Below, piece by piece: positions 26,982 through 28,713 of a stretch of DNA of 64,000 nucleotides. The stretch covers positions 10,979 through 74,978 of the forward strand of contig CAZEDX010000014.1 of the NCBI GenBank assembly GCA_964511015.1, in the 5' to 3' direction. Within the stretch, counting starts at the first letter, position 1; each line of letters begins with the position of its first letter. The notes beneath the pieces are model-generated. The model searched no databases and was not told where the DNA came from. It saw nothing but the letters and a program-made list of their open reading frames with translations. The translations under genes were made by a program, and so were the position numbers. Source of the stretch: an uncultured bacterium. Its GTDB lineage: Bacteria > Lernaellota > Lernaellaia > Lernaellales > Lernaellaceae.

Positions 26982-27725
26982 GTGGGAAGGTCGATGCACG
27001 TCGTCTGGCAAACCTGGCACGAGCCCATCGGCGCGGCTGTCGCGTTGAACGAAGACCCCGATGGCGACGGCACGGCGGTGACGATGAACATTAGAATGCC
27101 GGGCCAGTACTTCGACGCGGAGACCGGCCTCCACTACAACTGGCACCGGTACTACGATCCGGCGGTGGGGAGGTATGTGCAGGCGGAGGTGCCACACCAC
27201 GATCAATCAGTGATCAATCCGTTCATCTATACGGGCAACAATCCGTTGAATTGGGCAGACAAGAGCGGATGGAGAGTACAACCAGGCTATGATTGCGTTA
27301 CCTTTTTGAAAGCCGGCAATCCCGATTCCTTCTGGGCGCTGTTTCCTCTTCTAAGTGACCCAACTCTTGATGCTTATGCCTGCAGTTGGGATTGTCCAAA
27401 AGGACTCACCGTCACTGTTTGCGATGACATCTATCCAAATAATCGACCTGATCCGGCTGCTTCTGCACTAAGATTACCCGACGGAAGTTGTGAGTTGAAC
27501 CTCAGCCGCGATTTCTTCCGGGAACGCACCAATCTAGATGAAGTCGAACGGTCTTGTCTAATCATGCACGAACAATGTCACCTATCAAAGTACACTAGGG
27601 AGGACACGGAGTGTTGGGCGGATGCGGTCCAAGCCGGGTGTCTTACCAGCCGCGTCGAAGTGTTTCAGGAACGCTTGGCTAAATGCCTAATTGGTGGTCC
27701 ACCGGGTCCTCCTTGTGTGCGTTAG
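26982..27725 (+). CDS. Orphan RHS-repeat core C-terminus fused to a variable C-terminal toxin domain
   Basis: [31 protein letters not shown]...[18 protein letters not shown] matches the end of the RHS repeat-associated core domain. It is followed by a ~150-aa Cys-rich unique domain. The ORF opens just after a stop, with no upstream RHS body. Confidence 0.7.
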   Translation: [247 protein letters not shown]

Positions 27726-27753
27726 TCGGTGGAGAACGTGCGAATGAGCAATC

Positions 27754-28251
27754 ATGATGACTGACTTACGAGTTCTAGTCCGCCATCTCTGTGAATCGGC
27801 GTGCTGGGGTCCCTCGGAACCGGCGGCGTGGTTCTGTCGGTATTTTATCCGAAACTATGGCTGGCAACTGGTGCTCGCGGGGCTGGCGACCGGAGTGTTT
27901 GTGCATACGCTGGTCTGCACCGGGTGGATAGTTGGCAGGCGCCAACGTCCGTATGTTCGATGGCACTATTTCATTCTCAAACTGGTGACCTGGCTGGTTG
28001 TGCCCTACGGAGCGACCAATGTCTTTGGCTTTCTTGTTCCGGACCAACATCGTCCGTGGTTTGGTCCGAACAATGAGCTGCTGATTTGCGCTGTCTATCT
28101 CGCGGTCAGGGTGCCGGTCGTCTTGTTCGTCCTGCGCAAAAAGGATGTGGTTCCTTTCGAGTTCGCGGCGGCGATGGTCGAGCCATTTCTGATGTTGTCG
28201 ATCATGAAATGGATCATTGCCAATGTCTTCCCGGCGTGGGGTCTGACCTAG
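27754..28251 (+). CDS. Small membrane protein, putative RHS-toxin immunity protein
   Basis: 165 aa, 4 TM. Immediately downstream of the RHS C-terminal gene. Paralog of the next gene. Confidence 0.55.
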   Translation: MMTDLRVLVRHLCESACWGPSEPAAWFCRYFIRNYGWQLVLAGLATGVFVHTLVCTGWIVGRRQRPYVRWHYFILKLVTWLVVPYGATNVFGFLVPDQHRPWFGPNNELLICAVYLAVRVPVVLFVLRKKDVVPFEFAAAMVEPFLMLSIMKWIIANVFPAWGLT

Positions 28252-28275
28252 CGGATGCTGTTCAAGGAGTGACCT

Positions 28276-28713
28276 TTGTTCGATTGGCTATATTTTTGGT
28301 TCATTCGTAGCGACGGTTGGCAAGCCATGGTCGCCGGTGTGATGGGTGGTCTGGCGGTCCAGGCATTGGTCAACGGTATGTGGCGGGCTTACCACCGCAG
28401 TTGGCCGAAAATCGGGTGCGTTTTCTATTTTGCCAAGCTGACAACTTGGCTTCTTGTCCCGTACAACCTTCTCTCCTGGTACGCGTTGGGGATTGGGACC
28501 ATTGCGAACTACTACGATGGCTACCGAGGTTTCTTTCTTATCCTCCAATACGCACTCATTCGAATTCCTGTGCTAGCGTTCGTTGCGAAGCGAAAAGACT
28601 TTGTTGTTTTCGATCTGATTTCCATCGTGTTCGAAGCGGCAATCGTTCATGCCTTGTACGGTTGGATACTGGTTCACATCTATCACTTCAACGTCGCGTC
28701 TTTGATGCAGTGA
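28276..28713 (+). CDS. Small membrane protein, paralog of 27754-28251 (second immunity-like gene)
   Basis: Shared blocks KL[VT]TWL[VL]VPY and RKKDVVPFEF / KRKDFVVFDL. Same TM topology. Confidence 0.55.
   Translation: MFDWLYFWFIRSDGWQAMVAGVMGGLAVQALVNGMWRAYHRSWPKIGCVFYFAKLTTWLLVPYNLLSWYALGIGTIANYYDGYRGFFLILQYALIRIPVLAFVAKRKDFVVFDLISIVFEAAIVHALYGWILVHIYHFNVASLMQ

Follow-up and report, generated by a model that had tools for sequence, protein, structure and literature searches.

What is an open reading frame (ORF) that begins directly behind a stop codon, within the end of an RHS repeat-associated core, and is followed by genes for two small membrane proteins? This question is raised by positions 26982–28713 of a 64,000-nucleotide stretch of DNA from an uncultured bacterium of the family Lernaellaceae (assembly GCA_964511015.1, contig CAZEDX010000014.1, positions 10,979 to 74,978 of the forward strand), the whole of which is called the window here. 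A sequence-only reading of this DNA had proposed a displaced orphan module of an rhs C-terminal (rhs-CT) toxin and its immunity genes. The locus is very probably a stranded, 5′-truncated rhs-CT cassette with its cognate downstream genes. The full picture, in which the toxin would be a zincin acting in the periplasm and the two membrane proteins would form a two-subunit membrane immunity, is tentative and somewhat doubtful. Cassette and mechanism together, with the two degrees of confidence blended, make up the best explanation as a whole, which we regard as moderately probable. The architecture is of a well-known kind, the rhs C-terminal toxin/immunity cassette; the families of the toxin and of its putative protectors appear to be new. 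The features of the locus are given below, where P0004 is the only domain-length homologue of the toxin tip, L082 is the contig that carries it, and Shine-Dalgarno is abbreviated as SD.

26209..26975, no strand: upstream spacer without recognisable coding content, and with no RHS or YD sequence in any frame
26976..26978, plus strand: in-frame TAA stop, 5′ truncation point of the rhs frame, read from the sequence
26982..27269, plus strand: RHS repeat-associated core stub, residues 1–96, from TIGR03696 and alignments with Rhs proteins in the PDB
27270..27725, plus strand: C-terminal toxin tip, residues 97–247, 151 residues with 11 invariant cysteines, from the alignment with P0004
27567..27581, plus strand: HEQCH (HExxH) motif in the HEQCHLS block; conserved E207 and the TECWA block (E210) come after it
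27754..28251, plus strand: ImmA, 165 residues, four transmembrane (TM) segments, predicted immunity subunit A, from hydropathy, the helices of an AlphaFold2 (AF2) model and the L082 orthologue
28264..28269, plus strand: AAGGAG, SD-like site 6 nucleotides (nt) 5′ of the TTG start of ImmB
28276..28713, plus strand: ImmB, 145 residues, four TM segments, paralogue of ImmA, predicted immunity subunit B, from its similarity to ImmA and the L082 orthologue

The coordinates of the toxin ORF (26982–27725) and the protein letters quoted for it agree with the DNA, and the stop codon said to precede it directly is present. The reading frame opens at position 26979, with GTG 26982 and ATG 26994 as its first start codons; SD-like AGAGG lies 7 nt before the former and GGAAGG 3 nt before the latter, where the NCBI product P0001 (243 residues) begins. 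The 247 codons are made up of 96 codons of core and 151 of unique tip. That the ORF starts in the end of an RHS core is borne out by the Rhs_assc_core model TIGR03696, which matches residues 33–96 over profile positions 13–75 of 76 (E-value 9e-20, 71 bits, with a cut-off of 32.5). The same residues align with the solved Rhs cores 7q97, 8h8b, 8qja and Tse15 (E 1e-10 to 1e-7). The end of the stub falls on the DPxG[LW] autoproteolysis site of the solved Rhs proteins (...NPIGWIDPLGW), and the variable tip therefore begins at about W97.

A hidden Markov model (HMM) of the RHS tail, 486 positions long and derived from the C-terminal ~500 residues of seven full-length RHS proteins, was compared with the six-frame translation of the whole window. 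The single match is ORF 26982–27725, at positions 388–480 (E 1.6e-39); of the Rhs core, the final ~93 positions are left in the cassette, with neither YD shell nor N-terminal delivery domain. Searches with tblastn, using the core and using a YD consensus, found nothing further in the window, and a YD-repeat shell 5′ of the core is absent from all of its frames. PF03527 is not present in the window ORF, although P0004 has it. No delivery domain (PAAR, VgrG-binding or signal) precedes the core: the stop is located one codon upstream, and the preceding 770 nt are without coding signal. In the spacer, the three forward-frame translations (26200–27000) contain no RHS-like sequence, the Pfam scan of its ORFs is empty, there is neither an Rfam match nor a plus-strand promoter-like site, and positions 26135–27040 show no similarity to other RHS loci. 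The sequence-only reading had pointed out that the gene would be intact if the remainder of an RHS protein, displaced by a frameshift, were encoded in 26209–26981. Such a hidden upstream part was ruled out by the three-frame translations, by tblastn and by the RHS-tail HMM, which is blank there; as the HMM finds nothing upstream, the gene is a 5′-truncated stub. Stub and tip contain neither a signal peptide nor a hydrophobic segment.

The evidence that the three genes belong together comes from one other locus. An exhaustive HMMER search with the tip against 1.84 billion representative proteins recovered a single domain-length homologue, P0004 (E 4.7e-20, 42% identity), encoded on the 2.9-kb NCBI metagenome contig L082. 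It is also a truncated Rhs stub, with a different breakpoint: it covers positions 365–479 of the RHS-tail profile, versus 388–480 for the window ORF. In L082, P0004 is followed by genes for proteins of 165 residues (1860–2357) and 144 residues (2425–2859), all three being intact and in the order of the window. Identities between the two loci are 47% for the ImmA proteins and 55.5% for the ImmB proteins, versus 30–36% between ImmA and ImmB; the duplication is therefore older than the split of the two loci. Since both paralogues have remained undamaged next to the toxin and in an unchanged order, they form an old co-inherited unit rather than a leftover from a lost toxin. The suggestion that ImmB is an orphan of the latter kind has to be given up, as L082 holds orthologues of both paralogues, in the same order and with the same toxin. 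When the DNA of the two loci is compared, 141 nt of the stub (27048–27188) show 88% identity, and the sequence on either side about 50%. Upstream in L082 an unrelated ORF of 120 residues is present in the opposite orientation (197–559, minus strand), and the neighbours of the cassette therefore differ between the two loci.

Other searches returned little. The k-mer-indexed searches recovered the query itself alone, and two scans of JGI metagenomes recovered nothing. The 80 RHS loci obtained in a scan of genome contigs are related via the core alone, their tips being unrelated. One further copy was found, a 1.3-kb Logan contig that is 100% identical to the window. As far as can be judged by sequence comparison, the tip thus appears to represent a new family with two known members, and the ImmA and ImmB families likewise appear to be new and very rare. 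Four other HMMER matches of the tip were judged non-homologous, being to short repeat motifs of NHL-like and HEAT-like repeat proteins. Residues 134–153 of the toxin (27381–27440) resemble the motif SCSxxCP[YF]GLxSTxAGDIYTV, which is repeated five to seven times in NHL-like repeat proteins; this likeness gave spurious-looking matches, including P0005 and P0008 (E 4e-9 to 1e-3).

The tip had been described as a unique, Cys-rich C-terminal domain of about 150 residues, in agreement with the 151 residues and 11 cysteines counted here; all 11 are invariant between the two tips. It had also been said to have no obvious known fold. This stands insofar as the tip matches nothing in Pfam, NCBIfam or PHROG, but an invariant HExxH block had been overlooked. 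Aligned with each other, the two tips share HEQCHLS (H196–S202) as their longest invariant block, and the invariant columns of this region are H196, E197, Q198, C199, H200, L201, S202, E207, T209, E210, C211, W212 and A213. HExxH is the signature of the zincins. Among the tips of RHS proteins, small HExxH domains form an established class, Tox-MPTase1–5, described as Wss1-like (PMC3482391). The structure prediction proposed for the tip yielded an AF2 model of low confidence, with a predicted local distance difference test (pLDDT) score of 45.8, in which strands, a helix ending in HExxH and a helix carrying E207 and E210 can be recognised. The order of these elements is compatible with a zincin, but Foldseek returned no significant match for the model. 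P0004 has a weak SprT-like match (E 0.096). From the motif and these faint hints of a fold, the chances that the tip is a small zincin-like Zn-metallopeptidase appear about even. The tip has no hydrophobic segment and is therefore not a pore-former. The presence of 11 conserved cysteines in 151 residues, together with polytopic partners, suggests that it acts in the oxidising periplasm or on the surface of the membrane.

The two downstream genes encode tandem paralogous 4-TM proteins, as had been noticed: ImmA and ImmB share 30% identity over 134 residues (E 1e-19), and each contains four hydrophobic segments. The AF2 model of ImmA is of low confidence (pLDDT 48.4) and has four long helices. 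ImmA also has a 36-residue N-terminal extension, which in the window copy contains three cysteines. In all four Imm proteins of the two loci, loops 1 and 3 are rich in lysine and arginine (two to five residues), but loop 2 and the C-terminus are not, from which a topology with both termini outside (N-out/C-out) is predicted. The DNA alignment shows that the counterpart in L082 of the SD-like site of ImmB is AAGAGG, 6 nt before a GTG start. An arginine in TM3 and a glutamate in TM4 are invariant in all four Imm sequences (in ImmA, R119 at 28108–28110 and E143 at 28180–28182, with their equivalents in ImmB); the two residues may pair in a salt bridge within the membrane or make up a functional site. 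When compared with described immunity families, ImmA and ImmB match no Pfam or NCBIfam model (E up to 1) and no PHROG family (E up to 0.1). ImmA recovered itself alone from an index of 5.8 billion proteins, and the pair has no relative among the JGI metagenome contigs. A known, unrelated function, which according to the sequence-only reading would undo the immunity assignment, was accordingly not found in the Pfam, NCBIfam, PHROG, index and metagenome searches. The stable pairing of A with B in these sequences suggests that the two proteins act together.

If the tip is a zincin, two zinc ligands and the catalytic glutamate would come from HExxH, and the third ligand from the next helix, as E207 or E210. 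The 11 cysteines would stabilise the tip by disulfide bonds, and its site of action in the target cell would be either the periplasm or the outer surface of the inner membrane. ImmA and ImmB would be located in the inner membrane in the N-out/C-out orientation, possibly as a heteromer, and would neutralise the toxin or shield a membrane-proximal target. In its truncated form the toxin would be undeliverable; the Imm pair would protect its host against relatives deploying the same toxin, and the ~140–290 nt of core would let the tip recombine onto a full-length rhs gene elsewhere in the genome and so be re-armed.

The base composition of the segment is that of an rhs gene. The flanks have a guanine-plus-cytosine (GC) fraction of ~0.65, the core stub 0.62, the tip 0.48 and the membrane-protein genes 0.52–0.57, and a GC-rich core with an AT-richer tip is the usual rhs pattern. 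The cassette sits in a low-GC islet between a carboxylase gene (21112–23079, encoding PYC_OADA and Biotin_lipoyl domains) and htrA. Apart from the cassette, the genes of the window are housekeeping genes, for RecO, this PYC_OADA/biotinyl carboxylase, HtrA, HlyIII, aminopeptidase P, GSIII, DapA, DapB and CorA. Among the window ORFs scanned, none belongs to a type VI secretion system (T6SS) or encodes a PAAR protein, VgrG, transposase or integrase. The window contains no Rfam family and no tRNA gene, hence no tRNA-linked integration site. At the upstream side, one further feature is present.

26134..26208, plus strand: diverged second copy (87%) of the carboxylase 3′ end, comprising its last 23 codons and stop, direct repeat D1

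The two copies of this 75-nt direct repeat (23008–23082 and 26134–26208) are 87% identical, the first 29 nt being identical. The cassette starts ~770 nt past the repeat, which brackets a separate, 3.05-kb low-GC insert. No integrase or tRNA gene is located nearby. The repeat looks like a recombination or integration scar that marks the upstream edge of the cassette segment. Since it brackets a low-GC insert, the stretch from the carboxylase gene to htrA is a recombination-prone variable islet. The insert contains four same-strand ORFs (23447–25908). The first (23447–24295) encodes a DUF6345 protein (E 1e-15) with an N-terminal hydrophobic segment. The others encode a protein of 243 residues, one of 161 residues that has a signal-like N-terminus and ends in a poly-Asp/Cys tail (...DDDDNDNDDGCGC), and a membrane protein of 119 residues; comparison shows that the latter is unrelated to ImmA and ImmB. 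An ORF of 61 residues (25949–26134), resembling beta-propeller/delta-60 repeats (TIGR02608, E 0.1), ends exactly where the 75-nt repeat starts and is probably the remnant of a truncated gene. Further downstream in the window, adjacent genes (31285–32145 and 32397–33173) encode two pilin-like paralogues. The N_methyl prepilin motif is matched by the former, whereas the latter, though alike in its N-terminal sequence, has no match in Pfam. Both share a Cys-rich C-terminal module, C..D..CPC...W.N.G.YE.CV...A.EC...G.I....R.QW...A..SICG.

The closest known systems are the orphan rhs-CT/rhsI modules of Enterobacteriaceae (Salmonella STM0292, Dickeya, E. coli; PMC3967940, PMC3150448). The cassette shares with them a 5′-truncated core fragment, a variable tip, immunity downstream and a GC content that is lower in the tip than in the core. 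There are also differences. The enterobacterial modules sit downstream of a main rhs/rhsI pair (PMC3967940), whereas the 64 kb of the window contain no other rhs gene. They lack translation initiation signals (PMC3967940), whereas the window cassette has start codons with SD-like sequences and no promoter-like site was found for it. They have one immunity gene, whereas the window has two immunity-like genes. The core retained is ~290 nt long in the window, versus 522 bp at 95% identity in the Salmonella orphan. The original interpretation as a displaced orphan module thus holds for its architecture, a 5′-truncated rhs fragment followed by immunity-like genes, but not for its setting: there is no main rhs within 27 kb upstream or 35 kb downstream, in the 64 kb covered of the 78-kb source contig, and, without a neighbouring full-length rhs, the locus is not a classical orphan array.

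Such an array is present in locus L003, from the metagenome-assembled genome CTOTU18725. Its core falls in the sub-lineage of the window core (NEDxDGDG...), and it shares the non-canonical junction (SDRKGL, versus ADKSGW in the window). The locus combines a longer rhs with immunity-like genes and two orphan cassettes, whereas the window has a cassette alone; neither its tips nor the genes downstream are related to their counterparts in the window. Positions 7593–14127 of its contig (DAIMDW010000020.1) form a textbook Rhs array, with an rhs ORF of at least 868 residues, the 5′ end of which abuts transposase-like ORFs. An immunity-like gene comes after the rhs ORF, and then two orphan rhs-CT cassettes, each restarting at ...MERTHPADDFFFDHLGTP.

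For the tip, the comparison is with the small C-terminal HExxH domains of the Tox-MPTase1–5 and HopH1-like tips (PMC3482391), of VgrG2b (PMC6899460) and of Rhs-M91 from Salmonella Dublin (PMC13556075). The metallopeptidase borne by VgrG2b of P. aeruginosa is reported to be an antibacterial toxin that acts in the periplasm (PMC6899460), and the Rhs-borne M91 metallopeptidase domain of Salmonella Dublin is reported to be antibacterial (PMC13556075). The window tip is like these in having the motif in a small C-terminal domain; it differs in having 11 invariant cysteines and no sequence match to the Tox-MPTase, HopH1-like, PVC-MPTase, VgrG2b or Rhs-M91 families. Its immunity candidates are polytopic membrane proteins, whereas no immunity family is listed for the Tox-MPTases (PMC3482391). 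As to truncated cores, the enterobacterial arrays are not the only reference. The rhsE gene of E. coli K-12 is a truncated, stand-alone rhs remnant, an isolated 3′ fragment outside an array. What sets the window locus apart from rhsE is an intact tip with two intact downstream genes, all three of which are conserved in another locus that has diverged from it.

That difference bears on whether the cassette is inert debris, an rhs tail and its downstream genes left behind by a deletion, without selection or use. The truncation directly after a stop codon, the absence of a plus-strand promoter-like site upstream and the near-singleton status of the protein families are what debris would look like, and so are the recombination scars at the locus, namely the duplicated carboxylase 3′ end and the truncated beta-propeller fragment. 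However, three intact ORFs of near-equal lengths (165 and 165, 145 and 144 residues for the Imm proteins) are present in loci that are 42–55% identical at the protein level, and both the gene order and the ribosome-binding site of ImmB are conserved; ORFs still open at this level of divergence make unselected sequence unlikely, and we regard debris as improbable. Another view of the stub is that it is translated alone, from GTG 26982 or ATG 26994, as part of a toxin-antitoxin-like module inside the producer. Its start codons, the AGAGG sequence and the annotated 243-residue NCBI product agree with this, and there is a precedent in internally expressed orphan Rhs toxins, for which expression from within has been described in Salmonella (PMC7043789). 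The product would lack a signal peptide or hydrophobic segment, however, and no promoter-like site was found; the 11 conserved cysteines and the membrane immunity fit an extracytoplasmic site, out of reach of a cytoplasmic product. Stand-alone action therefore seems hardly probable to us.

The tip might not be a peptidase, its HExxH, cysteines and histidines being structural metal or disulfide sites in a PAN/apple-like domain or a Vsr-like nuclease. We think this rather unlikely, though with a larger share of the probability than the foregoing. The PAN- and Vsr-type matches from which it derives are not significant, and a Cys-rich composition raises scores of this kind; for a nuclease, one would expect a soluble, cytoplasmic immunity protein instead of two 4-TM proteins; no block of the tip is more conserved than HEQCHLS, and we estimate from residue frequencies that HExxH would occur by chance in 150 residues with a probability of ~0.5%. 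ImmA and ImmB, for their part, might be hitch-hiking genes with no role in immunity, for instance a transporter or a pair of enzyme subunits. The invariant intramembrane Arg (TM3) and Glu (TM4) would suit catalysis or transport, and no known immunity family is matched. But the pair directly follows the tip in each of the two known loci, the searches recovered no copy from another context, and the GC content of the pair is low, like that of the tip. Cognate immunity genes of polymorphic toxin systems are typically recognised by this arrangement (PMC3482391, PMC3150448), which leaves hitch-hiking with little probability.

Several observations weigh against the picture of a periplasmic zincin with a two-subunit membrane immunity in a cassette that can be re-armed. 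No Tox-MPTase or peptidase model in Pfam-A matches the window tip (E up to 10), the best Foldseek hits are PAN domains (E 0.4), and a profile search of the PDB gave weak matches, to the Cys-rich, PAN-like Saratin (E 0.008) and to Vsr (E 0.24). With the low confidence of the AF2 models of the tip and ImmA, the hints of a fold are weak, and E207 and E210 are located just 11 and 14 residues past the first His, which is short for a gluzincin. The predicted immunity role is drawn from gene position and co-conservation, the start codon with its SD-like AGAGG would permit stand-alone translation, and the 64-kb window contains no main rhs that could serve in recombination. At the junction, the first DPxGL autoprotease motif is missing (AEVPHH), its first catalytic Asp being replaced by Glu in both members of the toxin family. 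The second reads DKSGW, in which the Asp and Gly-Trp are kept, and it fits the looser D-x-x-G-[LW] pattern of many relatives. Both DPxG motifs are present in 69 of 114 related cores and neither in eight, among them the window ORF, L082, four copies in L002 and L003, and L012. Given AEVPHH and DKSGW, release of the tip by self-cleavage is uncertain.

Rhs tips are rich in new antibacterial activities, and each new tip is therefore a candidate enzyme; the present one is rare, with two members in about 15 billion predicted proteins. An unlikely, more novel version of the periplasmic-zincin picture is that the tip founds a group of Cys-rich, periplasm-acting Zn-metallopeptidase toxins and that the 4-TM proteins are an obligate pair, conferring heteromeric immunity through the intramembrane Arg and Glu. 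If true, this kind of immunity, by a heteromer of 4-TM proteins, would have no described counterpart among Rhs peptidase toxins. A two-subunit immunity against a periplasmic protease, should the pair prove to be one, would suggest a target close to the membrane and a novel means of blocking a T6SS/Rhs-type toxin. Otherwise, the locus would be another case of rhs fragments and immunity genes persisting as stranded cassettes in variable islets of uncultured bacteria.

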